Shown: positions 4,019 through 34,551 of the stretch, piece by piece
Position numbering within the stretch: the first letter of the stretch is position 1
Layout of the letters: each line of letters opens with the position of its first letter
Notes under the pieces: generated by a model
Seen by the model: the letters and a program-made list of their open reading frames with translations, nothing else
The model's database searches: none
Told to the model about the DNA's origin: nothing
Program-made: the position numbers and the translations under genes
DNA from: an uncultured bacterium
GTDB taxonomy: Bacteria; Myxococcota_A; CAZTSL01
Length of the DNA stretch: 38,184 bases
NCBI GenBank assembly: GCA_964616915.1
Contig: CAZTSL010000019.1
Coordinates: 1-38,184 of the forward strand
Direction of reading: 5' to 3'

Positions 4019-6652
4019 TCAAGTCCTGTGACGCGATCCAGCCTCGCTCCTTCCCCACCGGTCGAGGAGGGGGTGACAGACGAGGGCGACCCAGAGGAAG
4101 GCGAGGAGGATCCCCTCGATCATCACCCCCCCCATCCGGAAGAAGGGGCTGAACCCTCCGAGCATCGTGGCGATGCCGAGGAAGATCCCGGTGAGCGCCT
4201 GAAGTGCGATCCCCCCGGCAAGCCCCCCCTGCCGCCAGTGAAACAGGACGACGAAGTCGATGACGACGAGGCACGGAATGACGCTCTTCACCACGAATGC
4301 GCCAGGGTCGAGCCGTCCCCACGGAAGGAGCACGAGATCGAGAAGTGGGGCGAAGAGGAAGAGGAGCCCGAAAGAGAGGCACGCCAGGAGGAGAGCACGG
4401 CCACGTGAAAAACCGTGGGCGAGGGGAAGGGTGCAAAGGAGGGCGACGAGCGGGAAGATCAAGCGGGCGCTGCGCGCGAAAGCCGCAAGTTTCCCTTCGA
4501 TCCGATCGAGAAAGAGCGGAAACCCCGACAACGTCGCCGTCACCGGGAAGGGGATCCCTGCCACTTCCCCCACGGTGGGCCGGTCGAAGAGGACCTCCAG
4601 GTCGTGGCGCCGGTGAAGGAGACGCTCGATCTCCTCGGCGTTCTCCGAAGCGATTCGCTGGAGGGGGGGGGCGCTGGCAAGACGCCGGCGTAGCGCCGTG
4701 GTCTCCAACGCCGCGACCACCCCCCGCAACCCTTCGAGGAGGATCGGTGCGATCTCCGCTCCCTCTTCCACCGGCGCGAGGGCCGCGTGAACGCCGGCTG
4801 CGATCCGATCGGCCGTGAGGGGTTGGGCCACGATGCGCCGGGCCACCCCGCGGGCCTCATCCTCCGCCAGCGGGATGAGCGTCTCCTCGCCGGTGAGGAA
4901 CGCCACGATCCATTCTTCCACGAAGGCCCGCTCCTTCGCCCCGAGGGGCGCCCCCTCGGCCGCCGAGAGGGTTCGGCCCAGATCGGAGGGGGTATCGGGA
5001 AAGATCTCGTGAAGGTCGCGAGCAAGGTCCTCGAGGATCTGACGCCGGATCGCCCCAGCCCCCGCAGCATCGGGGAGGTTGCGATAGGCAAAGAGGGGGC
5101 GCCCGAAGTGCTGGGCGAGATCCTCGGAGATCGATCGTGCCAGGGGGGCGGAATCCGTCAGCGTGGGATCGAGCCGAATCTGGATCACCGTCTCCGTTCG
5201 GTCTGGATCGACGAGGTTGCCGACCGGCTGACCGGCGAGGAAGACCCAGAGGCTTGCAATCCGCTCCCGGCTCCCCGGAAGATGCTTCTCTCCGGTCATC
5301 GCCATCCCCACCTGCCGGAGCGGTTCGACGATCGAGGTGACGCGCCGCACCCCGGGACGCCGGGAGAGGCGAAGAGAAAAGGCCTCGATTCGCCGCAGGA
5401 GACCGGGATGTCTGAGATCCCCCGTGATCCGGACGGTCAGATAGCGGGACCCTCCATAATACTGGTCGAGGTGACGGAAGCCGCGCCCCACTTCCGAGTC
5501 CTCGCCGAAGATCTTCACCGGATCGAGGGTGGGCGTGAGGGGGGGAGGGGCAAAGATGCAGAGCCCCACCGCCATGACGAGGAGAGCGATTGCGCCCCGC
5601 CACGAGGGGGTGGGAAGGGAGGAGATGCGCACCCCACTCCCCCAGCGGGCGAGGATTCCGACGGTCACCATCCCTGCCCCGCAACCGACCAGCACGAATC
5701 CTACGGAGGGGAGTCTTCCCCACACGAGGATCCCCCAGCCAAGGAGGGTGATCCCCCCCGCTGCGACCGGCAGGAGGTATGGCCACCCCTCCCCCCCCTC
5801 CCGCGGGGGAACGAGAGATGCTACCGCACTCCCCAGGAGGAGGAGGAGGAGGGGGAGGAGTTGGACGAGGTTCGATGCGACCGGTGAGGAGAAGCGGGAA
5901 GAGATGCCCACCGTGCCATACCCCCATACGATCCCGCCGGCGATGGAGAGGAGGGCGAAGAGAAACGCGCCCATGCGTGGGCGATACCCGAAAGCGAGGA
6001 TCCCGAGGGGAAGGAGCATCGCCGGCGCGATCCGCCAGAGCGCTCCGGCGAGGTGGCGCGCAACGAACGCCGTTGCCACGGGCTCCCCGATCAGAAAGGG
6101 CTCAAAATCTCCCTTCTCCCCTTCCACGGCCGCGTGGATCCCTTCCACGACGCGATTGCCGGGCGTCTTGCGGTCGAGTTCGCAGATCAGGAGGGTGCTC
6201 TCCCCTCCCTTGGAGACGAGTTCCCCCGCCAGCAACGGATCGGAGAGGACCCGGCCGCGAAGCGCTCGGAGTCCCGCGGCATCGGAAGGGATCTCTCCGA
6301 GGAGCGCCCGTGCCTCGACGCCGAAGCCCATCTCCCCCGCACTCGACATCTCCGTCACCGCAGCCAGCCCCATCACGCGGCGGACGCCGGCGAGGCGTTC
6401 GAGCCGGCGGTGCAACCTCGTGATCGCCGCCAGACGAGGGAGGGTGAAGATGTCGCCCTCGGGCGCATGGAGGGCGACGATGACGATGTTCGTTCCCCCG
6501 AAGACCCGATCGACCCGCTCCATCTCCTGGCGTAGGGGATCGTTCGGGGGCGCCCATGCGAAGATCCGGGCATCCGTGGTGATCCACCCGGCAAAGCATG
6601 CCATCGACGCAGTGAGCCCGAGGAAACACCATGCCAGATGAATTCGTTTCAT
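4019..6652 (-). CDS. RND-superfamily / MMPL-like integral membrane exporter (putative lipid exporter)
   Basis: Roughly 880 aa and very hydrophobic. Topology by eye: one N-terminal TM, a large soluble loop, a cluster of about 5-6 TMs, a second large soluble loop and a second TM cluster, which is the RND/MMPL pattern. The ATG at 6652 gives MKRIHLAWCFLGL...; the ORF track's longer start at 6688 is a TTG. The gene is tightly downstream of the FAAL gene. Confidence 0.55.
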   Translation of the reverse strand: MKRIHLAWCFLGLTASMACFAGWITTDARIFAWAPPNDPLRQEMERVDRVFGGTNIVIVALHAPEGDIFTLPRLAAITRLHRRLERLAGVRRVMGLAAVTEMSSAGEMGFGVEARALLGEIPSDAAGLRALRGRVLSDPLLAGELVSKGGESTLLICELDRKTPGNRVVEGIHAAVEGEKGDFEPFLIGEPVATAFVARHLAGALWRIAPAMLLPLGILAFGYRPRMGAFLFALLSIAGGIVWGYGTVGISSRFSSPVASNLVQLLPLLLLLLGSAVASLVPPREGGEGWPYLLPVAAGGITLLGWGILVWGRLPSVGFVLVGCGAGMVTVGILARWGSGVRISSLPTPSWRGAIALLVMAVGLCIFAPPPLTPTLDPVKIFGEDSEVGRGFRHLDQYYGGSRYLTVRITGDLRHPGLLRRIEAFSLRLSRRPGVRRVTSIVEPLRQVGMAMTGEKHLPGSRERIASLWVFLAGQPVGNLVDPDRTETVIQIRLDPTLTDSAPLARSISEDLAQHFGRPLFAYRNLPDAAGAGAIRRQILEDLARDLHEIFPDTPSDLGRTLSAAEGAPLGAKERAFVEEWIVAFLTGEETLIPLAEDEARGVARRIVAQPLTADRIAAGVHAALAPVEEGAEIAPILLEGLRGVVAALETTALRRRLASAPPLQRIASENAEEIERLLHRRHDLEVLFDRPTVGEVAGIPFPVTATLSGFPLFLDRIEGKLAAFARSARLIFPLVALLCTLPLAHGFSRGRALLLACLSFGLLFLFAPLLDLVLLPWGRLDPGAFVVKSVIPCLVVIDFVVLFHWRQGGLAGGIALQALTGIFLGIATMLGGFSPFFRMGGVMIEGILLAFLWVALVCHPLLDRWGRSEAGSRHRT

Positions 6653-6695
6653 GGACGATACGATAGAGGAGGGAGGGGGCGTTGTCAATCACTCC

Positions 6696-13486: not shown

Positions 13487-15250
13487 ATGAACAAACAACG
13501 GGCAGCGATCGAAACGTTCAAGGAGCAGTTGATCGAGGAGGGGGAGGTCGGGGAGAAGGCCGAGGCCGCGGAGGCGTTCGGAGGCGAAGGGATGGCCGAG
13601 GTCATGCCGGGAGAAGCCCCGCTCGATCTGGAGGCGGCCTCCTTTCAGGCGGCGCCCTCCATCCCGCCCCAGGCCAAACAGGTGCCTTCTCCTCCGAAAC
13701 GACGCAAGCGGGTGCTCCTCTCCGGCGGGGGACAGAAGACCTCCGAAGAACTCCAGCTCGAACGGGAAGCGCTCGAGGTGCGGGAGACGGGCTTCTTCCG
13801 CTGGAAGACCGTGATCGTCCCTCCGAACGCCTACGTCGTCCACACCCGTCTTGGGAAACCGGAACCGATCACGCTCGGCCTGGGGCGCTCCTTCAAGTTC
13901 AACCCCTATACGGACAGTTACCTCGTCGTTCCGGCGGCGATGCAGACGATCGGGATCGTCGCCACCTGCATCAGCAAGGAGAAACAGGGGATCCACGTCC
14001 TGGCCTATGTGCAGTGGCTGATCAGCGATTTCTCCGTGGCCTACCGCCACCTCGATTTCTCCGACCCCCGGGCGCCGATGGGGATCGTCAACGCCCAGCT
14101 CCGGGAGCAGGCCGAGGCCGCGATCAAGGACAAGGTGGCCACGATGAGCGTGGAGGAGGTCCTCACCGACAAGGCTCCGATCATCGCGGAACTCACCGCC
14201 CGCATGAAGGCCGTGGCCGAAGGACGGCGCCAGGAGGGCGAGGCCGGAGAGGGGGAGGGGCTCGGACTGCGCATCGTCACGGTCCAGATCAAGGAAGCCT
14301 TCGTCTCCTCCCAGAGCCTCTGGGAGAACCTCCAGGCTCCCTTCCGCCATCAGCAGGAACAAAAAGCCCGTTTGAGCCGATTGGCCGTCGAAGAGAAGAT
14401 CCGGACCATCGAACGGGAACAGCGTCTGGAGGATGCCGCCCGGGAGGCGGAGACCGCTGCCCGAATCGAACAGATCCAGGCGGAGAGGGAGACCGAAGCC
14501 TTCGATATCGTCGTCCGGGAGAAACACCGGCGTCTCGTACGCAAGAAGGAGGAGGAGCAAAAAGAGATCAAGCTCCTCGAAGAGACCGAACTCCTGCGCC
14601 GTGAATCGAACCGGAGGCTCCGCGAAGACGCCCGGAAGGACGAAGTTGCGGCTCAGATCGCCCAGCTCGAAGGTGAAACCTCGATCGCCCTCGAAAGGAT
14701 GGAACAGGAAACGATCCGGAAAACCGCGCAAGCGGCCGAACGTGCCAAACAGGAGGCCGCGGAACACCAGGCCGCGCTCGATGCGCTCGCCCGTGAAGGG
14801 GAACGCGCCATCGAGCACGCCCAGATCGCAGCCCGCCGGATCGCCGCGGAACGGGAAACCGCCCTGGCCGAGCAGGCCGCACGTCTCGAACGAGAACGGA
14901 TCGAAGGGGAAGCGGAACTCGCCCTGCAAAAGGAACGCCTCACCCTCGAAAACGCCCAGACGGAACGCGAACTCGCCTTTGCCCGGATGCGCCAGGAGAT
15001 CGAAAACAACGTCACCGAGCGGGGACTGACGAAGCGGGCGATCGAGATCCTCCCCGAACTCGTCGAACGGATGCCGAAGATCGATTCCCTCGAATCGATC
15101 CAGGTGACGCCCGTGGGCGCCGATGCCACCGGAACGAGCCAGGTTCACGCCTTCCTCGTCGAACTCTTCGCGCTCCTGCGTTCCTTGCGGGGCCACGCCC
15201 CCTCCCCGGGAGATCGACCCGATGACACGGTGGAGTCCTCCCCGGCATGA
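13487..15250 (+). CDS. SPFH / band-7 flotillin-like protein with a long Glu/Ala/Arg-rich coiled-coil region
   Basis: ORF 13343..15250; the internal ATG at 13487 is preceded by GGAAGGA. SPFH-like core FFRWKTVIVPPNAYVVHTRLGKPEPITLGLGRSFKFNPYTD...IVTVQIKEAF, followed by about 250 aa of EA/ER heptad-like repeats as in flotillin FloT/YuaG. The stop overlaps the next start (ATGA). Confidence 0.7.
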   Translation: MNKQRAAIETFKEQLIEEGEVGEKAEAAEAFGGEGMAEVMPGEAPLDLEAASFQAAPSIPPQAKQVPSPPKRRKRVLLSGGGQKTSEELQLEREALEVRETGFFRWKTVIVPPNAYVVHTRLGKPEPITLGLGRSFKFNPYTDSYLVVPAAMQTIGIVATCISKEKQGIHVLAYVQWLISDFSVAYRHLDFSDPRAPMGIVNAQLREQAEAAIKDKVATMSVEEVLTDKAPIIAELTARMKAVAEGRRQEGEAGEGEGLGLRIVTVQIKEAFVSSQSLWENLQAPFRHQQEQKARLSRLAVEEKIRTIEREQRLEDAAREAETAARIEQIQAERETEAFDIVVREKHRRLVRKKEEEQKEIKLLEETELLRRESNRRLREDARKDEVAAQIAQLEGETSIALERMEQETIRKTAQAAERAKQEAAEHQAALDALAREGERAIEHAQIAARRIAAERETALAEQAARLERERIEGEAELALQKERLTLENAQTERELAFARMRQEIENNVTERGLTKRAIEILPELVERMPKIDSLESIQVTPVGADATGTSQVHAFLVELFALLRSLRGHAPSPGDRPDDTVESSPA

Positions 15251-15849
15251 GCCTGCTACGCATCGAAGGGTTGCGTTATCTCGACCGGGGACCGATCGAT
15301 CTTGCGATCGAGGGGGGGGCGTGCGTCGCTCTCACCGGTCCATCGGGGGTGGGCAAGAGCCTGATGCTGCGTGCGATCGTCGATCTGATTCCCCATGAGG
15401 GGCGGGTGTGGCTCGACGGGGTGGAATCGCAGGAGGTTCCGGCGCCTCTCTGGCGAAGACGTGTCGGGATGCTTCCGGCCGAGAGTCTCTGGTGGTTCGA
15501 ACGGGTGGGGGATCACTTCGCCGCGACCGATCCTGTCCGTCTTGGCCGGCTCGGCTTCGGGCCCGATGTCATGGCGTGGCCGGTGCGGCGCCTCTCCTCG
15601 GGGGAGCGGCAGCGCCTTGGGCTCTTGCGTCTCTTGGCGAACGAACCGGAGGTGCTCCTCCTCGACGAGCCGACGGCGAGCCTCGACGAGGAGAACACGT
15701 TGCGGGTGGAATCGCTGATCGCCGACTACCGCCGGGAGCGGGGGGCCGTGGTGGTGTGGGTGAGCCATTCCCCGGCGCAGATCGCCCGGGTGGGGGAACG
15801 GGCCTTCCGCCTCGTGGCGGGGAGACTCGAGGAGATCGAGGTGCGATGA
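15247..15849 (+). CDS. fetA: ABC transporter ATP-binding protein, FetA/YbbL-like (short ABC ATPase)
   Basis: 200 aa. Walker A GPSGVGKS, ABC signature LSSGERQR, Walker B LLLDEPT, H-loop VSHS. The start overlaps the flotillin stop and the stop overlaps the permease start (ATGA in both cases). Confidence 0.8.
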   Translation: MSLLRIEGLRYLDRGPIDLAIEGGACVALTGPSGVGKSLMLRAIVDLIPHEGRVWLDGVESQEVPAPLWRRRVGMLPAESLWWFERVGDHFAATDPVRLGRLGFGPDVMAWPVRRLSSGERQRLGLLRLLANEPEVLLLDEPTASLDEENTLRVESLIADYRRERGAVVVWVSHSPAQIARVGERAFRLVAGRLEEIEVR

Positions 15850-16727
15850 ACACCGTTTCCCTGACCTCTCTCGATCTGGGGGTCGCCGCGCTCCTCCTGG
15901 TGGGACTGGCCCTGACGAGCTGGCGGTTGGCGCTCGGGCTCGAGGGGCGGATCTTCATCGCGGCGTTTCGGACCGTGCTTCAGCTCCTCCTCATCGGTCT
16001 CGTGCTCAAGGCGCTCTTTGCCCATGTCGATCCCCTCTGGCTCATGCTGATCGCGCTCGTCATGCTGGCTGCGGCGGGGCGGGAGGTCGTGGCGCGGCAG
16101 AAGTACCGTCTGGAGGGGGGGTGGGCCTTCTTCGTGGGGAGTGGGGCGATGTTCGTCTCCTCCTTTTCGGTGGCTCTCCTTGCGCTCACCGTGGTGATCC
16201 GCGCGGATCCGTGGTATGCGCCCCGCTATGCGATTCCCCTGCTCGGCATGCTGCTCGGCAATACGATGAATGGGATCGCGCTTGCGATGAACCATCTCAA
16301 TGGGCAGGTCTGGCAGGGGCGGGAGATGATCGAGCAACGTCTGATGCTCGGTCAGACGCGGGGGGAAGCGATCGCCGACCTCCGGCGGGAGAGCATGCGA
16401 ACCGGCATGATCCCGATCATGAACGCCATGGCCGCGGCGGGAATCGTCAGTCTCCCCGGGATGATGACCGGCCAGATCCTGGCGGGTGCCCCCCCGACCG
16501 AAGCGGTGAGATACCAGATCCTCATCATGTTCCTCATCACGGCAGGGACGGGATTCGGGACGATCACCGCGATCGCGTTCACCACCCGCCATCTCTTCGA
16601 CGCCCGCCACCGCCTCCGGATCGAACGTCTCCAGGCCATCTCCTCCTCTACAGGGCCGTGGAGGAAGGGGAGGGCGGGTTCGGGGATCTGGCGGCCAGGT
16701 AGAGATCGAGGAGTGCGGCCGCGGTGA
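15846..16727 (+). CDS. fetB: FetB/YbbM-like (UPF0014) ABC exporter permease
   Basis: ATG at 15846. N-terminal region LEGRIFIAAFRTVLQLLLIGLVLKALFAHVDP resembles E. coli FetB (RAIIQLIIVGYVLKYIF). Multi-TM. The 3' tail overlaps the convergent aroA-aroC ORF by about 80 nt, so the C-terminal roughly 30 aa are uncertain. Confidence 0.7.
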   Translation: MNTVSLTSLDLGVAALLLVGLALTSWRLALGLEGRIFIAAFRTVLQLLLIGLVLKALFAHVDPLWLMLIALVMLAAAGREVVARQKYRLEGGWAFFVGSGAMFVSSFSVALLALTVVIRADPWYAPRYAIPLLGMLLGNTMNGIALAMNHLNGQVWQGREMIEQRLMLGQTRGEAIADLRRESMRTGMIPIMNAMAAAGIVSLPGMMTGQILAGAPPTEAVRYQILIMFLITAGTGFGTITAIAFTTRHLFDARHRLRIERLQAISSSTGPWRKGRAGSGIWRPGRDRGVRPR

Positions 16728-19053
16728 ACGCCTCGACGATCACGGGAACACGAAGCACCACGGCGGGGTCGTGACGTCCCGTGACCCGGATCGTCGTGTC
16801 GCGCTGTTCCCGGAGATCGACACTCGCCTGGGGGCGGGGAATCGAAGGCGTCGGTTTGATCGCGATCTGGAAGATGAGCGGCGCTCCGGTCGAGATCCCG
16901 CCCAGAACCCCTCCCGAATGGTTCGAGCCGAGTTGTACGCTCCCTGCAGGGGAGAGATGGTAGGGGTCGTTGTTCTCACTCCCCCGCCGGGCCGCCGCCT
17001 CGAAGCCTGCACCGAAGGCGACCCCCTTGACCGCGGGGATCGTGAAGAGGTAATGCGCCAGGACCGCATCGAGCGCATGGAAGATCGGTTCACCGATCCC
17101 GATGGGGAGACCGTGGACCTGGCACTCCACGATTCCACCGAGCGAGTCCCCCTCCCGCCGAGCCGCGAGGACCACCGAGGCCATCTTCTCGGAGAGGATC
17201 GGGTCGGGACAGCGAACCGGGCTCTTCCAGGTGGCCTGGCGCGCCTCCTCGAAGGTCGGGATCCGAGGGAGCCGCAGATCGGCGATCTGGCGGACATAGG
17301 CGGCGATCGTGATCCCGTACCCCTGGAGGATCTGTCGGGCGACCGCGCCGGCGGCGACCATCCCCACGGTCATCCGGCCGGAGAGGAAGCCTCCTCCGCG
17401 GAAATCGAAGGCCCCGCCATACTTCCGCCAGGCCGTGTAGTCCCCGTGACCGGGACGCGGCGTATGGCGGAGTCGGATGTATGGAGCGTCGTGCCCGTCG
17501 AGGTTCGGGATCTCGATCTCGATCCTCCCTCCCGTCGTCCGGAGCCGTTCCCCTTCCCGAACGAACCCCTTGCGTAGCAGGAGGGGATCGGGTTCCCGAC
17601 GCTGCGTGGTCAGGAGACCCGAGGGTCTCCGTTTGTCGAGATCGGCCGTGATGGCGCGGTAGGAGATCGTCACGTTGGGGGGGAGCCCCTCGATCCGGAC
17701 CCCGACGCACCGTTCGTGCGAGCCTCCGTAGAGGGTGACCTGGAAATGGCGTCCGATCGGTGCGGTCTCGCTGAGCACCACGGCACCCGAGCGCCGCAGG
17801 TCGTGGAAGAAATCGGGGTACGATTTGTTCACGCACTCCGGCTGCGCGATATGGGTCTCCCCGCCGGCGATCATTCCGGCGATCGCCGCGGTCATCACGA
17901 TGCGGTGATCCCCGGCGGGATCGATCCGGGCGCCCTGAAGGATGGCAGGACCCGAGACTTCGAGGGCATCGTCTTCGACCTCGATCCGGGCACCCATCCG
18001 GGCGAGCATCGTGCAGATCGCCCGGAGGCGATCACTCTCCTTCCATCTGAGGCGTTTCGTGTGCGTGATCCGGGTCGTTCCCTGGGCCTGAGTGGCGACG
18101 AGGGCAAGGAGGGGGACGAGGTCGGGGATGTCGCGCGCATCGATCGTGGTCCCCCGCAACGGGGTACGCCGGGCGATCAGGCGTTCCTCCTCCCTTTCGA
18201 TCCTCCCCCCCATCGCCTGGAGGAGGGGAACGATCTTACGGTCCCCTTGCGTCGATCGGGGGGTGAGGCCGCAGAGAGAGATCTGGGGCCCGGCGAGCAC
18301 GCCCCCGGCGAGCCAGACGGCCGCCGCGGACCAGTCCCCCGAGATGGAGAGCCGCGGCGGGGCCTCGAAGCGCTGCCCCCCCGGGACCGTGAGCGTGTCG
18401 CCCCGCGGGGCGCGGGTGACCTCTACGCCGCATCTTTCGAGGAATTCGAGCGTCAACGCAAGGTAGGGGCGCGACACGGGAGGTGTGGGAAGGCGCAGGG
18501 TTCCCCCCCGCGGCGTGAGGGGGAGCGCGAAGAGGAGCCCCGAGAGGAACTGCGAAGTGATATCCGCCGGGATCTCGATCTCCCCTCCCACGAAGCCCCC
18601 CTCCACGGTGAGGGGAAGCGATGTCCCATGAATCCGTGCCCCCTTGCTCCGCAAGACTTCGAGCAGGGGGACGATCGGGCGGCGGGCGAGATCGGGACGC
18701 CCGGAGAAGTGAATCCGTCCGCCGCACACCGCCGCGATGGGCAGAAGCATCCGGAGCGTCGAGGCGGAGGAGGCGCAATCGATGTGGGCCAGGGCAGGGA
18801 TCCGCTCCACGATCGAGCCCTCTCCGAAGGTGATCGCCTCCTCCGAGATCTGCCAGGAGGCCCCCATCCGTCCGAGTGCATCGAGGGTCGCCTCCGTGTC
18901 CTCGCACAGAAGGGGATGCTCGACCCGGACCGCGCCTGCGGCCAGGGCCGCGCAGATCAGCGCACGGTGCGTCTCACTCTTCGAGGGGGGAACGACGAGG
19001 GTGAAGTTCGGCTCGAACTTCGAAGAACGGATCAGGATCGACAGGTCACTCAT
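16648..19053 (-). CDS. In-frame fusion of 3-phosphoshikimate 1-carboxyvinyltransferase (EPSP synthase, AroA) and chorismate synthase (AroC)
   Basis: ATG at 19053 (MSDLSILIRSS). AroA motifs LVVPPSKSETHRALICAALAAG, GDWSAAAVWLAGG, DHRIVMTAAIAG; the domain ends at about ...YPDFFHDLRRSGAVV. The same frame continues without a stop into a chorismate synthase N-terminus (...GRHFQVTLYGGSHE), with later SLGGIVEC and FRGGGFLSGRMTV motifs. About 800 aa in total. Confidence 0.8.
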   Translation of the reverse strand: MSDLSILIRSSKFEPNFTLVVPPSKSETHRALICAALAAGAVRVEHPLLCEDTEATLDALGRMGASWQISEEAITFGEGSIVERIPALAHIDCASSASTLRMLLPIAAVCGGRIHFSGRPDLARRPIVPLLEVLRSKGARIHGTSLPLTVEGGFVGGEIEIPADITSQFLSGLLFALPLTPRGGTLRLPTPPVSRPYLALTLEFLERCGVEVTRAPRGDTLTVPGGQRFEAPPRLSISGDWSAAAVWLAGGVLAGPQISLCGLTPRSTQGDRKIVPLLQAMGGRIEREEERLIARRTPLRGTTIDARDIPDLVPLLALVATQAQGTTRITHTKRLRWKESDRLRAICTMLARMGARIEVEDDALEVSGPAILQGARIDPAGDHRIVMTAAIAGMIAGGETHIAQPECVNKSYPDFFHDLRRSGAVVLSETAPIGRHFQVTLYGGSHERCVGVRIEGLPPNVTISYRAITADLDKRRPSGLLTTQRREPDPLLLRKGFVREGERLRTTGGRIEIEIPNLDGHDAPYIRLRHTPRPGHGDYTAWRKYGGAFDFRGGGFLSGRMTVGMVAAGAVARQILQGYGITIAAYVRQIADLRLPRIPTFEEARQATWKSPVRCPDPILSEKMASVVLAARREGDSLGGIVECQVHGLPIGIGEPIFHALDAVLAHYLFTIPAVKGVAFGAGFEAAARRGSENNDPYHLSPAGSVQLGSNHSGGVLGGISTGAPLIFQIAIKPTPSIPRPQASVDLREQRDTTIRVTGRHDPAVVLRVPVIVEAFTAAALLDLYLAARSPNPPSPSSTAL

Positions 19054-19085
19054 TGGCGATCTTCCCCTCGCAACCTCCCGTGGCG

Positions 19086-20390
19086 TCAAAACGTGTCACG
19101 GGCAGCACGCCTCCTCGCCGGTTTGGAGAGCGGCGCGGCACCGTTGCCGATGAGGGAGAGGTAGTAACGGCTGGCCGAATCCGTGGGGTCGATGGTAACC
19201 ACTTCCTGAAAGCGTGCTCGAGCCTGACGGATCCGTCCGGAGAAGTAGGCATCGATCCCCGATTCGAAGATTTCCCGGGTCGTCTCCTTGCGTTCGATCT
19301 CCTCCGGGAGGGCGCCGTCGAAGATCTCGTAGATCGAAACGACCTCCTGCTTCCCCTTGACCTGCACCCGTCCGAGTCTCCGGGCGTGGAAATGCTCCGG
19401 TGCCTGGAGGTGGTGGATCACGTTCCCCGAGACGATGAAGGGAACGCCGTAGCGCTTCGTCAGGCTTTCGAGGCGGGCGCCGAGATTGACGGCATCGGAG
19501 AGGATGTCCCCACCGATGCGCTCCTCCTCTCCGATCACGCCGAGCATCATCTTCCCGAAATGGACGCCGATTCCGATGTCGATCGGACGGTAGTTCACTT
19601 TTCGACGGTGCTCGTTGTAGAGCCGCACGGCGCGCAGCTTCTCGATCCCGGCAACGAGCGCCGCATCGGGGTTCTCGGGAAAGACCGCCATGATCCCGTC
19701 GCCGAGGAATTTGATGACGAAGCCTCCGTTTTGCCGGATGATCGGGCTGAGCCGTTTGAGGAAGTTGTTGATGAGGTCGAAGTTCTCCTGGACCGTGAGC
19801 GTCTCCGAGAGCGTGGTGAAATTCCGGATGTCGGAGAACATGACGGCCATCTCGAGATGGATGTGGTCGCCGAGCGCGACTTCATCGATCGCCTCCTTGC
19901 GCAGGAGGTGGAGGAGATCCTTCGGAACGAAGCGCAAGGAGGCCGTCGTCAGCGCCTCGAGCATCTCCATCTGCCGGTGGAGGTTTCTCAGGAGCCGATG
20001 CCGCTCGATCGCGTAGAAGATGCTGCGCCGAAGGAGGTGGTGATCGAAACTCCCCTTGACGAGGTAGTCCTGCGCTCCCTGTTGCACCGCGCGGATGCCG
20101 AGCGCTTCGTCCTTGAGGCCCGTGAGCAGGATCACCGGCACGTGCGGAAACCGCTCGTGGGTCGTCTCGAAGGTCGCCATCCCCCGGCTGTCGGGGAGCG
20201 TCAGGTCGAGGAGGAGGAGATCGAACGGCCGCTCGGCGAGTTTCCCCATCCCCTCCGCCAGGGTGTCCGCCGTGGAGAGGTCGATCGTCGCCGTCTCGCT
20301 CCCATGAACCGTGTAGAGGAGTTCCTGCAGGAGGAAGACGTCGTCGGGATTGTCCTCGATCAGGAGGATATGGATTCCAGCAGCAGCCAC
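19086..20390 (-). CDS. Response-regulator receiver fused to a class III adenylate/guanylate cyclase
   Basis: Chosen start is the GTG at 20388-20390 (V of LVAAAGIHILLIEDNP), with AAGGAG (20399-20404 on the minus strand) 8 nt upstream. The longer ORF to 20834 has no RBS and adds a Pro/Ser-rich low-complexity N-terminus. REC motifs ILLIEDN, DLLLLDLTLPD, VPVILLTG. Cyclase motifs AVMFSDIRNFTTLSE, VIKFLGDGIMAVF, NLGARLESL. Confidence 0.8.
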   Translation of the reverse strand: MAAAGIHILLIEDNPDDVFLLQELLYTVHGSETATIDLSTADTLAEGMGKLAERPFDLLLLDLTLPDSRGMATFETTHERFPHVPVILLTGLKDEALGIRAVQQGAQDYLVKGSFDHHLLRRSIFYAIERHRLLRNLHRQMEMLEALTTASLRFVPKDLLHLLRKEAIDEVALGDHIHLEMAVMFSDIRNFTTLSETLTVQENFDLINNFLKRLSPIIRQNGGFVIKFLGDGIMAVFPENPDAALVAGIEKLRAVRLYNEHRRKVNYRPIDIGIGVHFGKMMLGVIGEEERIGGDILSDAVNLGARLESLTKRYGVPFIVSGNVIHHLQAPEHFHARRLGRVQVKGKQEVVSIYEIFDGALPEEIERKETTREIFESGIDAYFSGRIRQARARFQEVVTIDPTDSASRYYLSLIGNGAAPLSKPARRRAARDTF

Positions 20391-20398
20391 GAGATCGT

Positions 20399-20404
20399 CT
20401 CCTT
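20399..20404 (-). promoter_or_regulatory. Shine-Dalgarno AAGGAG for the GTG start of the REC-cyclase gene
   Basis: Reverse complement of + strand CTCCTT at 20399-20404, 8 nt upstream of the GTG. Confidence 0.5.
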
Positions 20405-20697
20405 GTCCCCCCGGAAGGTGATGAATGCCTTTTCGGGCTCCCAAGGACGAAAGCGAGAAGCAATTTTCGTTCCTCGAATCTCTTCCGGCGCTCACAGGAG
20501 AGAAAAGGGTGGAATATCCGGGGGAACAGGACGCCGGAGGCATCGAGAGGGATGCGATCCAGTGAGGGAGGAGGGGGGAGAAGGCGTACAAAAAACGCAC
20601 ACCTCGCCCTTCAAAGCGACGCAGATCCCCATCCGGGAGGTCGTTCGCCCCCTTCGGTCCTGGCGTTCTCGAAAGGGGCGTTCGGCGATGGGGGAAA

Positions 20698-22092
20698 CTA
20701 CTTGAGACCGGTGTAGGTTCCCCGCTTGAGGTAACGGCCATGCCCCTTTCGGCCGACGTATTTGCAGTCGCGCACGACGACCCTCCCGCGGGAGATGACG
20801 GTCTCGGGGTAACCGGAGACTTCGAATCCCTCATAGGCGCTGTAATCGACGTTCATGTTGTGGGTCACGGGGTTGTGGACGCTGATCGTCTCTCTGCGCT
20901 GGGGGTCGAAGAGGACGATATCGGCGTCGCTGCCCACGGCGATCGTCCCTTTCCGGGGGAAGAGGCCGAACATCTTCGCTGCGGCGGTGGAGGTGATCTC
21001 CACGAAGCGATTGAGCGAGATGCGGTTCTGCACGACGCCCCCCTGGTAGATCAGGGCCATCCGGTTCTCCACGCCGGGCGCGCCGTTGGGGATCTTCGTG
21101 AAGTCTCCGAGGCCGAGTTCCTTCTGTTCCTTGAAGCAGAAGGGGCAGTGGTCGGTGGAGATCGCCTGGAGATCGCCGAACCGGATGCCGCGCCAGAGTC
21201 TCTCCTGGTTCCACTTCTCCCGCAGCGCAGGGGTCATGACGTATTTGGCCCCCTCGAAGCCCTCCTGCTCGTAGCAGGAGATGTCGAGGAAGAGGTATTG
21301 CGGGCAGGTCTCGGCAAAGGCGGGGACGCCCCGGTCGCGGGCGATCGTGACCTGTTCGAGCGCGTCGGAGGAGGAGAGGTGGACGATATAGACGGGAACC
21401 CCCGCCACCTCCGCGATCGCGATCGCGCGGTGGACCCCTTCGGCCTCCATCCGGGTCGGACGGGTGAGCGCATGCCATTTCGGTTCGGTCTTCCCTTCCC
21501 GCTTCGCGATCTTGATGATCTCGTCGATCACGATGCCGTTCTCGGCGTGCATGCAGATGAGCGTTCCATTCTCCCCGGCCTGCCGGAAGGCGCGGTAGAG
21601 CGTTCCATCATCGACGTAGAGGACGCCGGGGTAGGCCATGAAGAGTTTGTAGGAGGTGACCCCCTCCTCCACGAGCCGGCGCATCTCGGGAAGACGCTCG
21701 TCCTCCATGTCCGTGATGATCATGTGGAAGCCATAGTCGATCGAAGCCTTCCCCTCCGCTTTCCGATGCCAGGTGTCGAGCCCTTCGAGCGTGGAGTGGC
21801 CCTTCGTCTGGATCGCGAAGTCGATGATCGTCGTCGTGCCGCCGTGGGCCGCGGCGCGGGTGCCCGTCTCGAAGTCGTCCGCGGAGATCGTTCCGCCAAA
21901 GGGCATGTCGAAGTGGGTATGGGGGTCGATTCCGCCGGGGATGACGAGTTTGCCCGTGGCATCGATCACCTCGTCTGCCGCGATGTCGAGGTGTTCGCCG
22001 ATCAGCGTGATCCGTTCGTCCTCCACGAAGATATCGGCGTGATAGTCGTCCACCGCGGTGACGATCCTTCCATTCTTGATGAGCAGCGACAT
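20698..22092 (-). CDS. Dihydropyrimidinase / D-hydantoinase (cyclic amidohydrolase superfamily)
   Basis: 464 aa. Metal-binding GGIDPHTHF, later carboxylated-lysine region SYKLFMAY and VHLSS, and TDHCPF. AGGAGG RBS 6 nt upstream of the ATG at 22092. Confidence 0.9.
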   Translation of the reverse strand: MSLLIKNGRIVTAVDDYHADIFVEDERITLIGEHLDIAADEVIDATGKLVIPGGIDPHTHFDMPFGGTISADDFETGTRAAAHGGTTTIIDFAIQTKGHSTLEGLDTWHRKAEGKASIDYGFHMIITDMEDERLPEMRRLVEEGVTSYKLFMAYPGVLYVDDGTLYRAFRQAGENGTLICMHAENGIVIDEIIKIAKREGKTEPKWHALTRPTRMEAEGVHRAIAIAEVAGVPVYIVHLSSSDALEQVTIARDRGVPAFAETCPQYLFLDISCYEQEGFEGAKYVMTPALREKWNQERLWRGIRFGDLQAISTDHCPFCFKEQKELGLGDFTKIPNGAPGVENRMALIYQGGVVQNRISLNRFVEITSTAAAKMFGLFPRKGTIAVGSDADIVLFDPQRRETISVHNPVTHNMNVDYSAYEGFEVSGYPETVISRGRVVVRDCKYVGRKGHGRYLKRGTYTGLK

Positions 22093-24807: not shown

Positions 24808-27800
24808 CTATCGTCTTCTCAGCCGGCGCCAGAGGCGGAACTCGAGGAGGAGGAGGAGGAGCGCCGAAGGGAGGAGCCGCCTGGGCGCCACGGGGACGAT
24901 CCCGCAGCATCCCCCCCCCCCTTCCCCGCTCGATGTCTCCCCTGGGGAAGGGGACGCGCTCTCCACTGTGGTACCGGAAATTTCCCCGCTCGTCAACCCA
25001 CCCTCCGTCGGTTCACCGGAGAGGGGCCCCTCCTCGCTCGTCCCCCCCGTCTCGTCGGTGGTCGAGGGATTCTCGATCGGGTCGCAGACATCACCGATCC
25101 CGTCCCCATCGCCATCCTCCTGCCCCGGATCGAAGGTCTCTGGGCAGTCGTCCTCGTCGTCGCCGACTCCGTCGTTGTCCCGGTCGAAGGGGGAGAGGAG
25201 CCGCAACGCGGGATCCCCGAAGAGGAGGAAGATGTCGTAGATCTGCGCAAAAATCCCGTCGGGCGGCAGGAGCGCCTTTCCCAGGGAGAGGAGGTTGCCC
25301 ATCTCCCGGACGTCCTCCTCGAAAAAACCCCGAAAGAGGTTCTCGTCGAAGACGAAGGCCGCAAAGTCCGTGGACAACCCCGAGGGGGAGAAGGCGCCGA
25401 TCACCCCACCGGAGGGCGTCGCCAGGAGGAGTTCGGCGAGCGCGTCGGAGGATGGAGAGGGAATGATGAAGTACCCGTTCAAACAGTTGAGCGTAAGAAG
25501 GAGGGGGAGACGAAGCCCGTTCTGAAGGGCCGGGACGTCGAAGCGCGTGAAGATCTGCTCGTGCGCCCAGACTTCCGTGTTCCCATGCCCCAGATAGTTG
25601 AGGAAGACCCCTCCGCCGTTCCACGCAGAGAGGATCTCGTCGTGCGTCCCTTCCCCCTGCTGGGAGAGATAGATCTTCTCTGTCTCGTGGGAGGGGGGTA
25701 CCCGCTGCGCGAGGGCGTTCGATTCGTTCTCGAAGTCCCCCGCCGCATCCGCGTTGTCGGAAACGAGGATGACCCGCCGCACGAAGGGTTGCAGGTTCCC
25801 GTTCAGCTCATAGAGGAAGATCTTGTCCGTGATCGCCTCGAGTTCCTCGGCCGTGTTGACCGGCAAGCGTCCGATCGCCATGTCGGGGACGAGATCGACA
25901 CCAGACACGGCAACGAGCACGTTGTCGGAAACGGTCTTGAGGAACTGCGTGGGCACGAGATCGGGGGGGATGTAGTTCGGAACGTTCGTGTTCTGGTAGT
26001 TCTTGAAGTCGAAGTGTCCATCCCCGACGAGGAGGACGTAGCTCGGCACCGGCGTGAGCCATTCCTCGAAGGCGTAGCGGAGGAAGGCGGCGATCGCTCG
26101 CGGGGTTTTCCGGCCAAAGGAAAAGGTGTCGTAGATCTCCTCGACGTCGATCACCTTGACGGAAAGTCCGCGTTCCCGGTGAAAGAGGGCGATTCGCTCC
26201 GCCCCCGTCCGGAAGTCCCGGGGCGTGATGATGAGGTAGTCGGCCTGGTTGCTCGGGAGGGTGAGGGTGGAGGGGATCGCCAGGCGAAGACGGGGAGGCC
26301 TTCGCATCCGTTCCCGCGAGAGGGCGAGATAGCTGCGGGACTCCTCCCCCGACGTGGCGAAGGTGAGCGTCTTCTCCCCCCCCTGCGCCGTGATTTCGCT
26401 CCCTTCGACCCGGCGGGGATGGTCCGGATCGCTGATGTCGTAGAGGAAGAGTTCGTTCCCCGTAAAACCGGAGATCGCGATCCGATGCGCTCCCCCTTCC
26501 CCCACGAAACGGAGTTCGTCCCCCTCGGCAACGAAGCGGCGGGAGAGGTCGATCTCGACATGGTTGAGGAAGAAGCGGTCCACCACCGCCTCGTTCTCCC
26601 CCGCGGCCCGGATCCGGAGGAGGTTCTCCCCCTCGACGAGCACCCCGGGATCGAGCGGGAACTCGACCGTGGCCTCGGTGAGCCCGTCGAAGCCGAAGGA
26701 GGTGAAGGAGAATCCGCCGATCTCCCCCGCGATCCGGTGATCCTCGGTCATCGAGTTCTGATCCGTGGTCTCCCCCCGCGCCGTGATCCGCAGGCGTGCA
26801 GGCGCATCTTCGTCGAAGGGGGGGAGTTCGAGACGAAAGGTCGATTCGTTCCCCCCGATCCGACTCCAGAACCAGTTGTCGTCCTTTTCCCCCAGCCCGA
26901 CATTGAAGTGCGCCTCCCGGTTCTCCTCGAAGTGGAGCGTATCGGGAAAGGTCTCGAGGCGCGGTTCGTCGTGCGGGGTGCCATCGACCGTTCCGATCCG
27001 AAGGCCGGGGGCGTCCCCCTCTACGAGACGATAGACCTCGAAGCGGAGGAAGGGGTCTTGCGGCGCTTCCCCGTAGAAGCGGATCGCGGAAGGGGTCTCC
27101 TCGATGGCGACCGGTTCCCCCCCCCGGAAGAGCTGGAGGTGGGAAGGATCGGTGATGGGGAACCCCGCTTCCTCCATGGCGGAAAGGTCGAGTTCATGGA
27201 ACCCCGTCTCCTCCACGAAGATGTCCAGAACCGTCTCTCCTTCGGTTTCGCTCGTCTCCACCCCTTGCGTCTCCACGCGTCCGAGCCAGCGCTCCGAGGG
27301 GTTGACGACCGCAGCGTCGTAGAGGGCGGCGAAGGGACGCGCCGCCTCCTGGGCGGGAATCCGTCGCTCCGTGGGGACCGGATCGGTGAAATCGAGGGAG
27401 AGACGCAGCCGTCGGTAGAAGTGGAGGCGCTCCCCTTCCGGGAGGAAGGGATTCACCCGCACCCGTGCGATCTTGAGATGCCCAAAAAAGACGATATCCC
27501 CGATTTCCCCCAGGCACTTCGGGAGCCCTCCCTTCCCATCGGGAGGGAGGGGGAAAGGAATCGCCGCCTCGAGGGGGGTGATGCGCAGGGAGACCCGGCG
27601 GCCGGGCAGGACCCCGACGTTGAGAAAGAGGCGGGGCAGGGGGGAGCGGCCTTCGTTTCCCTGGAGGATCGTCATCCCCCTGCCGGCCGGCAGATCGAGC
27701 CGTATCCCCCCATCGACATGCCGGGGGAGACCGAGATCGAGATCGATGACGACCCCCTGCTCCGAGGAGGAAACGACCCGAACCCCTTCCCCCCGCGCGT

Positions 27801-27879
27801 TCCGGCCCCCTCCGAAGAGCCAGAGGAGGATGCAGAGCATCCCGATCTTCACGCCGGATCTCGATTTCCTTCGATTCAT
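24808..27879 (-). CDS. Secreted peptidase C25 (gingipain-like cysteine peptidase) family protein with C-terminal thrombospondin type-3 Ca-binding repeats and a Cys + TM + Arg-rich sorting-signal-like tail
   Basis: ATG at 27879 (MNRRKSRSGVKIGMLCILLWLFGGG, signal peptide). C25 catalytic dyad context NYLGHGNTEVW (His) and LLLTLNCLNGYF (Cys). TSP3 repeats DRDNDGVGDDEDDCPETFDPGQEDGDGDGIGDVCDP. C-terminus GGGGCCGIVPVAPRRLLPSALLLLLLEFRLWRRLRRR. Confidence 0.7.
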   Translation of the reverse strand: MNRRKSRSGVKIGMLCILLWLFGGGRNARGEGVRVVSSSEQGVVIDLDLGLPRHVDGGIRLDLPAGRGMTILQGNEGRSPLPRLFLNVGVLPGRRVSLRITPLEAAIPFPLPPDGKGGLPKCLGEIGDIVFFGHLKIARVRVNPFLPEGERLHFYRRLRLSLDFTDPVPTERRIPAQEAARPFAALYDAAVVNPSERWLGRVETQGVETSETEGETVLDIFVEETGFHELDLSAMEEAGFPITDPSHLQLFRGGEPVAIEETPSAIRFYGEAPQDPFLRFEVYRLVEGDAPGLRIGTVDGTPHDEPRLETFPDTLHFEENREAHFNVGLGEKDDNWFWSRIGGNESTFRLELPPFDEDAPARLRITARGETTDQNSMTEDHRIAGEIGGFSFTSFGFDGLTEATVEFPLDPGVLVEGENLLRIRAAGENEAVVDRFFLNHVEIDLSRRFVAEGDELRFVGEGGAHRIAISGFTGNELFLYDISDPDHPRRVEGSEITAQGGEKTLTFATSGEESRSYLALSRERMRRPPRLRLAIPSTLTLPSNQADYLIITPRDFRTGAERIALFHRERGLSVKVIDVEEIYDTFSFGRKTPRAIAAFLRYAFEEWLTPVPSYVLLVGDGHFDFKNYQNTNVPNYIPPDLVPTQFLKTVSDNVLVAVSGVDLVPDMAIGRLPVNTAEELEAITDKIFLYELNGNLQPFVRRVILVSDNADAAGDFENESNALAQRVPPSHETEKIYLSQQGEGTHDEILSAWNGGGVFLNYLGHGNTEVWAHEQIFTRFDVPALQNGLRLPLLLTLNCLNGYFIIPSPSSDALAELLLATPSGGVIGAFSPSGLSTDFAAFVFDENLFRGFFEEDVREMGNLLSLGKALLPPDGIFAQIYDIFLLFGDPALRLLSPFDRDNDGVGDDEDDCPETFDPGQEDGDGDGIGDVCDPIENPSTTDETGGTSEEGPLSGEPTEGGLTSGEISGTTVESASPSPGETSSGEGGGGCCGIVPVAPRRLLPSALLLLLLEFRLWRRLRRR

Positions 27880-28269
27880 CTTCACCTCGTCGTCTCTCCG
27901 GTGCGCGTGCACCCTGCCGGCTCGATCTCTCCATCGTATCACAATTCCCTTCTGCCTGTCATGGGCGTTCCGGATTGATGCCAGGGCCCCGGCAAAGTCC
28001 AGATCCGGCGCCCGGGGATTGGCCGTCGCGCCGAGGGCAGGAGAACCGGCGAGACGGCGGCAGGTGGCGTAGGAGGTAAGATGCTAGGATGAAGCAAGAA
28101 TGAAGAGATTTGGGCGCACCCGTCCCTCTCCACGCCTGGTGAGGGAGAGCGGCGAGGTGGGTGAGGCGTGGCAGAGGCGTCGGGTGGTCAGGCCAGGCCG
28201 ATCAGGCGCAGCGGGCGTCCGGCAGCGCTATGCCCAGGATGCTCTCGATGCTTTGGCGGAGGCCGCGGC

Positions 28270-28470
28270 GATTGCAAGGAGGAGGCGAATCCGGAGCCCG
28301 AGGACCGGGATCCGGACGGTATCGGGGATGCGTGTGACCCTCGTGTCCGCTGTGGTGGTCGTTCGAGCCTCGTGCTTCCGGGAGATTCCCCCTTCCCCAC
28401 CGAATATCTCCTCGTTGGTCTCGTCCTTGCTTTCACCCGCTACCGGATGCGCCGCGCCCGGTCGGGTCGA
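28270..28470 (+). pseudogene. Relic of the 3' end of a paralogous secreted-protein gene (TSP3 repeat + sorting-signal-like tail), in frame upstream of the metalloprotease start
   Basis: Translation in frame +1 gives ...CKEEANPEPEDRDPDGIGDACDPRVRCGG...DSPFPTEYLLVGLVLAFTRYRMRRARSGR, which closely parallels the C25 tail DGDGIGDVCDP... + hydrophobic stretch + RR tail. There is no signal peptide or RBS for a free-standing gene, and no stop before the metalloprotease ATG. Confidence 0.35.
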
Positions 28471-28612
28471 TCTCTCCTTCTCTCCCATTTCGATTCCTTC
28501 CGTGGGGTGCGGTGCGTGGCTGCGTCCCTCGACGCGGCGAACCGCAAACCGGTGCCCTGCCCTGGCAAAGGGGACGCTTCGCGCCTTTGTCCGGTCGGGG
28601 ACCCTTTTCCCA

Positions 28613-28619
28613 AAGGAGG
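28613..28619 (+). promoter_or_regulatory. Shine-Dalgarno AAGGAGG for the metalloprotease gene
   Basis: AAGGAGG lies 7 nt upstream of the ATG at 28627. Confidence 0.55.
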
Positions 28620-28626
28620 AAAGAGG

Positions 28627-31431: not shown

Positions 31432-31601
31432 GGGGGCTCCCTCGAATCGGCTGACCTTCCCTCCTCCTCCTGCCGCCCTGCTCCCTCCCTTTACATCCGG
31501 TCAAGAGCGCCCTATCATCGCCGTTACGGGTCGTGATGAGCGGTTTTCCACGGGAAGCGGCGCACCTCGCCGCGGATCGCCTTCGAGACGAAAGGGGTGG
31601 T

Positions 31602-32768
31602 ATGGGCAAGTGGCGCGTTTCTCTCCTCTTCCTTCTGATCGGGCACGTCTTTCTGGTGCGGGACGCCTCTGGCGGGGCGTTCCGGCACCTCACCGCCCGG
31701 GAAGCGGGGATGGGGGGGGCCGGTGTTGCGCTGGCGGAGGGGGGGCTTGCCCCATACTGGAACCCGGCCCGCCTCGCGGAGGGTGGGGAGGTCGATCTTC
31801 ACCTCGAATTGGGAAGCAGCTATGAGAACCGCAACGACTTCCTCGCGCGCACCGATGCCGCGATCGCGGCGGTCAACCAGGCGATCGAAACGGAGGCGTT
31901 CGCGGACATCGCCGTGGCGGTCGCCGCCGTGGAGGCGCTGGGAGGGGATTTCGCCCAGATCGAACCGAATGTTTCCCTGGGCCTGCGGTGGGCGCGCTAC
32001 GCCCTCCACTTCGTCTCCTACGACACGGCTGCGGCAGGGGTGTCGGGGGTGACCTTCCTCCCCGACCTTCCCGGGGAATACAGCGCCAACGTCTCCGGTC
32101 TCCAGATCGGCGAGATCGCGCTGAGCCACGGCCGCCGGATCCGCTCCGGTGGACCTTCCGTGGGGTTGAGCCTCAAGGCGATCGGAGGGGTGGGGATCGA
32201 GGGACATGTTCCCCTTCGGACGATCGACCGGATGGAGAGCTTTCTGCGGGAGGAGGCGGCCGGCATCGCGTTCAACGGCGTCGCCTTCACCTTCGATCTG
32301 GGGCTTTCCTATCCCCTGGCCAACGACCGGGTCGCGATCGCGATCGTTGGGAAGAATCTGACCGCTCCCCGTATCGATGTGGGGGGAGGGGAGACGGAGA
32401 AGTTTCCTCCGATGGTCCGGTTCGGGGTGGGGGGGTGGATCGCCCCGTGGTGGCGGGTCGAGTTCGATCTCGACGCCACACGGAATACCCGCCGTCTCGG
32501 TTTCGACGCCGTGGAGGGGACGGTCGAGGAGGTCACGACACGGGAGGTGAGCTTCGGTTCCGAGTGGCTCCTGACCCACCGGTGGGCCAGCGCCACACTT
32601 CGTTCCGGGATTTCGAACACCCTCCGGGGGGGAGAAGGGCGGATCACCGCAGGATTGGGCCTGCGCTGCTTTTTTCTCGAGATCTCCGCCGCCGCAGGCA
32701 CGAATTTCGACTTCGATATCGAAGCAAGCGGCTTCGGTCAAATCGGTGTGATGATCCGTTTCGAGTGA
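31602..32768 (+). CDS. Putative outer-membrane beta-barrel protein (TraF_2 / FadL-like fold guess) with signal peptide
   Basis: ATG at 31602. Signal peptide MGKWRVSLLFLLIGHVFLV. Alternating amphipathic strands rich in Gly and aromatic residues. N-terminal GMGGAGVALAEGGLAPYWNPARLA motif and C-terminal ...QIGVMIRFE (aromatic near the end) are consistent with an OM barrel. Lies 170 nt downstream of the metalloprotease on the same strand. Confidence 0.45.
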   Translation: MGKWRVSLLFLLIGHVFLVRDASGGAFRHLTAREAGMGGAGVALAEGGLAPYWNPARLAEGGEVDLHLELGSSYENRNDFLARTDAAIAAVNQAIETEAFADIAVAVAAVEALGGDFAQIEPNVSLGLRWARYALHFVSYDTAAAGVSGVTFLPDLPGEYSANVSGLQIGEIALSHGRRIRSGGPSVGLSLKAIGGVGIEGHVPLRTIDRMESFLREEAAGIAFNGVAFTFDLGLSYPLANDRVAIAIVGKNLTAPRIDVGGGETEKFPPMVRFGVGGWIAPWWRVEFDLDATRNTRRLGFDAVEGTVEEVTTREVSFGSEWLLTHRWASATLRSGISNTLRGGEGRITAGLGLRCFFLEISAAAGTNFDFDIEASGFGQIGVMIRFE

Positions 32769-34194: not shown

Positions 34195-34223
34195 TTGACA
34201 AGGCTTCGGCATGGGGATAAGAT
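34195..34223 (+). promoter_or_regulatory. Candidate sigma70-type promoter (TTGACA-N17-TAAGAT) about 330 nt upstream of metK
   Basis: TTGACA at 34195-34200, a 17-nt spacer, then TAAGAT at 34218-34223. The two hexamers and the spacer are read from the sequence; that they form a functional promoter is inference. Confidence 0.3.
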
Positions 34224-34551
34224 ACCCCTCCATGACAGATCGCCTCGTGTCGATTCGACCGTCGTCGGTGCCTCTTCCCCGTCCGACGATGCCGGGCGAG
34301 GCGTCCGGGCCGGTCTTCACGCATGCACCCCGGGAATGCGCTCCACCTTCTCTGAAATCGTGCCGTTTCCCCGCAGATATTGCGTGTGCCCGGAAAGGTC
34401 TCTGCAACGAATCCTCCATTTCGTGAGGATCGGAGCGAGAGGTTCACGTTTCTGGACGATCCCCTTCATCGTATCGGACGCTTCCGCAAGACGACGGTCG
34501 TTCCGGAACCCGCGGAGGGGGCCAAAATCCATCGCCAGGAGAACTTTCACG

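Follow-up and report, generated by a model that had tools for sequence, protein, structure and literature searches.

Why pathways fuse, whether for co-expression, channelling or transferability, is a question for which shikimate-pathway fusions are a textbook case, and the known examples include AROM, plant AroD-AroE, AroA-Cmk and TyrA-AroA, the latter two represented by NCBIfam models. Chorismate synthase (AroC) is the enzyme normally left out of these fusions. AROM (Aro1), found in fungi and protists, carries five domains (AroB-A-K-D-E), among them 5-enolpyruvylshikimate-3-phosphate (EPSP) synthase (AroA), and an earlier note on the DNA studied here had remarked that it excludes chorismate synthase. 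That statement holds for canonical AROM, but an exception has been reported from the dinoflagellate Amoebophrya ceratii, in which a six-domain protein composed of AROM and AroC was described as unique (PMC6482013). Here we describe a gene in a 38,184-nucleotide stretch of DNA from an uncultured bacterium (positions 1 to 38,184 of contig CAZTSL010000019.1, assembly GCA_964616915.1; hereafter the window) that encodes AroA and AroC, in that order, in one reading frame. The predicted protein is like AROM in having consecutive shikimate enzymes, including EPSP synthase, on one polypeptide, and like the Amoebophrya protein in having chorismate synthase attached, but it is prokaryotic and consists of AroA followed by AroC only; the EPSP synthase domains of the AROM structures 6hqv and 7u5s align with its AroA half. 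It is highly probable, in our judgement, that the open reading frame (ORF) is a genuine, selectively maintained fusion of archaeal origin that was later transferred to a bacterium, and that it likely yields one bifunctional polypeptide.

Two families of bacterial proteins also combine EPSP synthase with another enzyme, AroA/cytidylate kinase (PRK11860) and prephenate dehydrogenase/AroA (PRK14806), but their partner domains differ from that of the window protein, which matches both models through its AroA part only and well below cutoff (235 bits against 943, and 129 bits against 902, respectively). A 2024 survey of archaeal fusions covered aroD-aroE, aroE-aroK and pheA, which are likewise mergers of neighbouring pathway genes in archaea, with occasional bacterial members; an aroA-aroC composite is not mentioned in its text or in the supplements consulted (PMC11237513). 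Surveys of EPSP synthase domain architecture name the common partner domains, chorismate synthase not among them, and our literature search turned up no account of an AroA-AroC fusion in prokaryotes.

The uninterrupted frame had been placed at 16648-19053 in the earlier note, and these coordinates proved exact; all of the peptides quoted there were found, and the strand, which had not been given, is the minus strand. According to the ORF list the frame runs without interruption through 801 codons, from an ATG at 19053 to a TAG stop at 16648-16650 (Table 1). An in-frame TTG at 19089 is an alternative start that would give a product of 813 amino acids, but the ATG is the likely start because all homologues open with "MSD/E..L.I.IRKS" and because a GAGGGG lies 10 nt upstream, in the position of a presumptive ribosome-binding site; a second Shine-Dalgarno-like motif, GGGAGG, is found at 19074-19079. 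The protein is identical to NCBI RME43147.1 (P0001), from a metagenome-assembled genome (MAG) labelled "Deltaproteobacteria bacterium", where it is annotated as 3-phosphoshikimate 1-carboxyvinyltransferase only. A Pfam scan of the fusion protein found PF00275 and PF01264 and no AroB, AroK, AroD or AroE domains. At the junction the C-terminal tail of AroA passes directly into the first residues of AroC, no linker having been inserted, and about 10-17 residues (RRSGAVVLSETAPIGRHF) separate the two folds. At the 3' end the orthologue in a sister MAG (GCA_003694145.1; L083) has a TGA stop aligned with an AGA codon of the window gene (Arg789), past which the window frame continues to TAG, so that it shares 80 nt (16648-16727) with the convergent FetB-like gene; a 28-nt segment near this end is present in the window and not in L083.

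Table 1. Features of the aroA·aroC gene and of the genes next to it, in window coordinates.
Feature	Position	Strand	Remarks
aroA·aroC fusion gene	16648..19053	-	801 codons + TAG; Pfam and NCBIfam matches for both enzymes
EPSP synthase (AroA) domain	17797..18999	-	aa 19-419; PF00275
Junction	17746..17796	-	aa 420-436; LRRSGAVVLSETAPIGRHF
Chorismate synthase (AroC) domain	16696..17745	-	aa 437-786; PF01264
C-terminal tail and stop	16648..16689	-	RSPNPPSPSSTAL; 13 codons; missing from the sister-MAG orthologue
Shine-Dalgarno-like GAGGGG	19064..19069	-	10 nt before the ATG at 19053; read from sequence
Response-regulator receiver + adenylate/guanylate cyclase gene	19086..20834	-	PF00072, PF00211; not aro
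UPF0014/FetB-like permease	15846-16727	+	PF03649; convergent downstream, not aro
ABC ATPase	15247-15849	+	PF00005; convergent downstream, not aro

The EPSP synthase half matched PF00275 with 315 bits (profile positions 11-417 of 417) and the aroA equivalog TIGR01356 with 373 bits, against a cutoff of 287. In a pairwise alignment the counterparts of E. coli K22, S23, R27, R100, R124, S170, Q171, D313, E341, R344, H385, R386 and K411 were all kept; the numbering of the E. coli AroA reference sequence agreed at all ten residues compared. A model made with AlphaFold2 from the alignment of the family had a mean predicted local distance difference test score (pLDDT) of 84.5 and a predicted template modelling score (pTM) of 0.85, and its AroA half superposed on closed E. 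coli EPSP synthase with a template modelling score of 0.92, normalised to the target, and a root-mean-square deviation of 1.9-2.0 Å (matched entries include 1g6s and 3fjx), so the model predicts the two-lobed EPSPS/MurA fold for this half. No solved structure covering both halves was found in the structure comparison.

The position of E. coli Gly96 is occupied in the window enzyme by Ala97 (codons 97-98, window 18760-18765), with Ala also in P0002 and P0012 and Gly in most fused relatives ("ESGSTLR"), and the position of E. coli Pro101 by Met102. Replacements of this kind, G96A and substitutions at P101, are classic glyphosate-insensitivity changes (PDB 1mi4, 2qfq, 2qfs). Because it has Ala and Met at these two positions the window EPSP synthase may be glyphosate-tolerant, and the Ala at the G96 position bears on the prediction of herbicide sensitivity.

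The chorismate synthase half covered the whole of PF01264 (358 bits, profile positions 1-327 of 327) and exceeded the cutoffs of the aroC equivalog TIGR00033 (338 bits against 212) and of NF003793 (348 bits against 321). The motifs G-x-SH, RPGH-x-D, GGGF-x-S-x-RMT and GRHDP were invariant in an alignment of the 18 full-length fusions described below; in the window protein they read GGSHE (S445-H446), RPGHGD (H536), GGGFLSGRMT and GRHDP (R760-H761-D762), and S445-H446, H536 and R760-H761-D762 are presumably catalytic.

A database search for AroA-AroC fusions, which the earlier note had proposed, revealed that the gene does not stand alone. Among 5.8 billion clusters searched for full-length proteins with both Pfam domains there were 18 fusions of 727-823 amino acids, comprising the window protein, the orthologue from the sister MAG (85% identical) and 16 others at 41-49% identity, and the alignment was gapless through the junction in all 18. 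Apart from the two bacterial MAGs, all named members are archaeal (Micrarchaeota, Thermoplasmatota and Aenigmatarchaeota), and each is named at its source for one activity only, as "3-phosphoshikimate 1-carboxyvinyltransferase" or as "chorismate synthase". Archaeal members such as MBI5227011.1 and MBI5046468.1 (Micrarchaeota) and MCL4412708.1 and MGC8645217.1 (Thermoplasmatota) share with the window protein the domain order, the gapless junction, 41-49% identity over their full length and a single clade in the tree; the archaeal genes, however, belong to aro operons, beside aroE·aroK or aroD·aroE·aroK and pheA. The gene in the window is an orphan amid high-GC bacterial DNA, and its product has Ala at the G96 position and a 13-residue C-terminal tail.

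When one genome from each GTDB species was scanned by tblastn, with a stop-to-stop frame test afterwards, 80 loci were obtained. Most had matches spanning both halves, but 64 had separate adjacent genes, 8 were AroC-only matches and 6 were clean fusions. The single-ORF fusions came from Thermoplasmatales (L001), Thermoplasmata (L003), Micrarchaeota (L002 and L005), Aenigmatarchaeota (L004) and a divergent member of Micrarchaeia (L007), and single stop-to-stop frames were seen in L001-L005, L007 and L081-L083. At the 64 unfused loci, aroA was followed by an adjacent aroC in Clostridia, Veillonella, Thermoprotei, Thorarchaeota, Thermococcus, Desulfurococcales and Methanosuratincola. An exhaustive search of 1.84 billion representatives at 50% identity found both domains in only about 7 of 6443 strong matches (P0002, P0121, P0122, P0123, P0125, P0126 and P0129), in agreement with the earlier view that the arrangement is uncommon. 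The architecture is thus rare, and its sequences are already public under monofunctional names; the implication that it is a one-off did not hold up, since there is a conserved, mainly archaeal family and, besides it, independent Clostridia-like fusions. Other rare fusions of chorismate synthase were encountered in the course of this work, with the compositions AroC-CM-SKI, AroD-AroC and AroC-CM (P0223, P0232 and P0268).

Phylogenetic analysis placed the window gene among archaeal sequences. In a neighbour-joining tree of concatenated AroA and AroC domains (90 taxa, 200 bootstraps, domains extracted by best-scoring match) all archaeal sequences and the window pair formed one clade with 100% support, apart from the Clostridia-type sequences; the fusions, L007 excluded, were monophyletic (93%), and within them the window pair was sister to a Micrarchaeota group (79%). 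The contig itself is bacterial, with bacterial-type genes for MetK (TIGR01034), AhcY, a receiver-Ser/Thr kinase, a receiver-cyclase, a DnaJ-domain protein and a FetAB-like pair, and with peptidases of the C25, M16 and M4/M36-like types. A mis-binned archaeal contig was considered and ruled out by this bacterial gene content and by the uniform composition: the fusion gene has a GC content at third codon positions of 0.83 and an overall GC content of 0.67-0.70, both similar to those of its neighbours, whereas the archaeal loci have 36-56% GC. An orphan copy on a bacterial contig, nested inside an archaeal fused clade, points to transfer from archaea to a bacterium, and the host-like base composition indicates that any such transfer is old enough for amelioration; it also predates the split of the two MAGs. 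The simplest reading is a single fusion event in archaea followed by transfer of the fused gene to the bacterium, a direction suggested by these sequence comparisons.

The possibility raised earlier, that two adjacent genes had been joined in the assembly by a missed stop or an indel, deserves attention since artefacts of that sort do occur in such data: P0126, which was not counted as a real fusion, has a junction that resembles frameshift junk, and L015 (Clostridiales UBA8921), which looked fused in the ORF test, is unreliable as a fusion, since no more of AroC than its C-terminal half is in frame and the locus contains ambiguous bases. For the window gene we give this explanation almost no credence. 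The gene is nucleotide-identical in the Logan assembly of SRR7905022 and in NCBI MAG GCA_003694725.1, which are independent assemblies; the frame is open across the junction of the 85%-identical orthologue, where the differences include synonymous changes; and at least 16 further, diverged fusions have the common gapless junction. The window and the sister MAG also have neighbouring genes in common (a dihydropyrimidinase-like amidohydrolase, the response-regulator cyclase and the convergent UPF0014 gene). Between the two genomes the ratio of nonsynonymous to synonymous substitution rates (Nei-Gojobori) was 0.25 in the AroA half, 0.16 in the AroC half and 0.10 over codons 415-445, which span the junction, so that both halves and the junction itself are under purifying selection. 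It is the comparison of sequences, and not the mapping of reads, that excludes a missed stop or indel here, and the frame is a true in-frame fusion, not two genes with an overlooked stop. The suggestion that internal initiation at a junction GTG supplies a separate AroC, in addition to the fused protein or as the main product, so that the locus would act like a coupled pair, is quite unlikely. In-frame GTG codons are indeed present at V425 and V426, and the unfused ancestors had GTG or ATG starts near the same place, but no GGAGG-like motif precedes these codons, the V426 codon is CTA in the sister MAG, the two positions vary across the family (V/T/E/N/Q/D and V/L/I/A), and the N-terminal Met of AroC is gone from all members.

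The evolutionary history could also be read in two other ways. It is common for bacteria, Clostridia and Veillonella among them, to have aroA and aroC side by side, and two of the proteins from the exhaustive search, P0125 and P0129 (the latter with a linker of about 70 residues), have their closest counterparts among unfused Clostridia sequences and seem to be fusions of independent origin, so the window gene might have been formed de novo from a bacterial lineage's own aroA-aroC pair with no transfer between domains. This seems very unlikely for a protein in which each half alone matches the archaeal fusions best: the top 14 matches of the AroA half were fusions, as were the top 5 of the AroC half (the sister orthologue at 89% identity, then four Micrarchaeota-group fusions at 52-55%), while single-domain proteins reached at most 45% identity to the AroC half. 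The junction, moreover, is homologous to and gapless with that of the archaeal fusions, the gene is nested in their clade at the support values given above, and no further aro genes were found nearby, in the 38 kb of the window. The reverse transfer, from bacteria into DPANN and Thermoplasmatota archaea, has in its favour the bacterial-type shikimate kinase (SKI, PF01202) and bacterial-style pheA in the archaeal operons and the position, in the neighbour-joining tree, of the archaeal and fused clade inside a broadly Clostridia-like radiation. We regard it as improbable, however, given that the fused clade is sister to unfused sequences from TACK archaea, Thermococcus and Thorarchaeota and that it holds many archaeal lineages, with one shallow bacterial pair only.

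Several observations nonetheless weigh against a single archaeal fusion, its later transfer and a bifunctional product. The Clostridia-like proteins P0125 and P0129 indicate that such a fusion can arise independently, and the main fused clade does not include the divergent fusion from Micrarchaeia (L007/P0122). Some of the fused relatives, including P0003, P0004 and P0007, carry no taxonomic label, and the labels of MAGs can be wrong. Neighbour-joining was the only tree method used, and trees of the single halves recovered monophyly of the fused clade in only 67 and 82 of 200 bootstraps, for which reason the concatenated data were used. Within the AroC half, the motif that reads GESHG in most of the family is GGSHE in the window protein.

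The archaeal fusions are located in tight aro operons. In Thermoplasmata (L001) the order is aroB – aroD – aroE·aroK – aroA·aroC – pheA, and the ORF layout of L003 is the same; two other loci (L084 and L085) have aroD – aroE·aroK – aroA·aroC – pheA, with tyrA downstream. In a Micrarchaeota genome (L002) and an Aenigmatarchaeota genome (L004) a trifunctional aroD·aroE·aroK lies directly upstream of aroA·aroC, which puts steps 3-7 of the pathway on two polypeptides. The trifunctional proteins (L002:3110-5044 and L004:4107-6014; 635-644 amino acids) combine DHquinase_I, shikimate dehydrogenase and SKI domains, and bifunctional AroE·AroK proteins of about 436-455 amino acids are encoded directly upstream of aroA·aroC at L001:2305-3615, at L007:4680-5996 and as the second called gene of both L084 and L085. 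The kinase in these archaeal fusions is of the bacterial SKI type, not the archaeal GHMP type, and its presence in archaeal operons makes deeper exchanges between the domains likely. In unfused archaeal relatives the stop codon of aroA and the start codon of aroC overlap or adjoin each other; examples are ATGA (Thorarchaeota loci and Thermococcus), GTGA (Desulfurococcales and Methanosuratincola) and TTGATG (Pyrodictiaceae). If a translationally coupled pair of this kind lost the stop, the tail of AroA would run straight into the head of AroC, as it does in the fused junction, and the fusion most likely arose by loss of the overlapping stop/start.

From these data a sequence of events can be proposed. 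In archaea, adjacent and translationally coupled aroA and aroC genes would have lost the intervening stop, and the fused gene, carried in a compact aro operon, would have spread among Thermoplasmatota and DPANN archaea. Two "Deltaproteobacteria" MAGs represent the bacterial lineage that would then have acquired the fusion as a single self-contained gene. The product is predicted to be one polypeptide of about 86 kDa (an estimate from its 801 residues) that may perform steps 6 and 7 of the pathway, the N-terminal EPSP synthase domain converting shikimate-3-phosphate and phosphoenolpyruvate to EPSP and the C-terminal chorismate synthase domain, which would depend on reduced flavin mononucleotide, eliminating phosphate from EPSP, which yields chorismate. 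Chorismate synthases that occur as separate proteins form homotetramers, EPSP synthases are monomers, and by analogy the likely assembly is a chorismate synthase tetramer core with four peripheral EPSP synthase domains. The likely benefits of such a protein would include obligatory 1:1 co-expression, co-localisation of consecutive steps and the transfer of two steps as one gene, and it is possible that EPSP is channelled within the predicted bifunctional enzyme.

A broader interpretation, which we offer tentatively and to which we give somewhat less than even chances, is that the placement of steps 3-7 on two polypeptides, AroD·AroE·AroK (or AroE·AroK) and AroA·AroC, in some DPANN and Thermoplasmatota archaea is a prokaryotic counterpart of AROM that includes chorismate synthase, and that AroA·AroC crossed into the bacterium as a self-sufficient two-step cassette. 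If, in addition, EPSP were channelled between its active sites, the fused enzyme would be the first natural example of channelling from EPSP synthase to chorismate synthase. With its two domains, an AroA·AroC protein that is natural and conserved in any case offers a simple system for testing EPSP channelling, and the fusion marks a probable transfer of a ready-made two-step module from archaea to bacteria. Since annotation pipelines name only one of the two activities, aroA or aroC may be wrongly scored as missing in these MAGs, and the genomes so affected would include those of DPANN archaea, which are often called biosynthetically poor.

The surroundings of the window gene are unrelated to the shikimate pathway (Table 1). 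The receiver-cyclase gene ends 32 nt before the ATG of aroA·aroC on the same strand, a neighbourhood that is kept in the sister MAG, and the NCBIfam matches of the convergent ABC pair to FetA/FetB-like models are below cutoff. Rfam and transfer RNA scans of the window found nothing, a promoter scan found none, and a single terminator-like match was within shuffle expectation. The receiver domain of the cyclase has a parallel at 88-2151 (+), where a receiver is fused to a Ser/Thr protein kinase, both being unusual outputs.

Elsewhere in the window, two long ORFs of 889 amino acids (4019-6688, -) and 411 amino acids (31533-32768, +) have gene-like codon composition and no Pfam family at E<=1e-5. 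Two putative secreted proteases are encoded by divergently oriented genes, one of 1044 amino acids with a gingipain-like peptidase C25 domain (24808-27942, -) and the other of 1087 amino acids with an M4/M36-like peptidase, an FTP propeptide, a MAM-like domain and thrombospondin type 3 repeats (28168-31431, +). The MetK ORF (34195-35712, +) has a TTG start and encodes 505 amino acids, with about 125 residues ahead of the MetK profile that probably reflect an over-long start call and not a real extension, and AhcY follows directly, so that two genes of the methyl cycle are paired.

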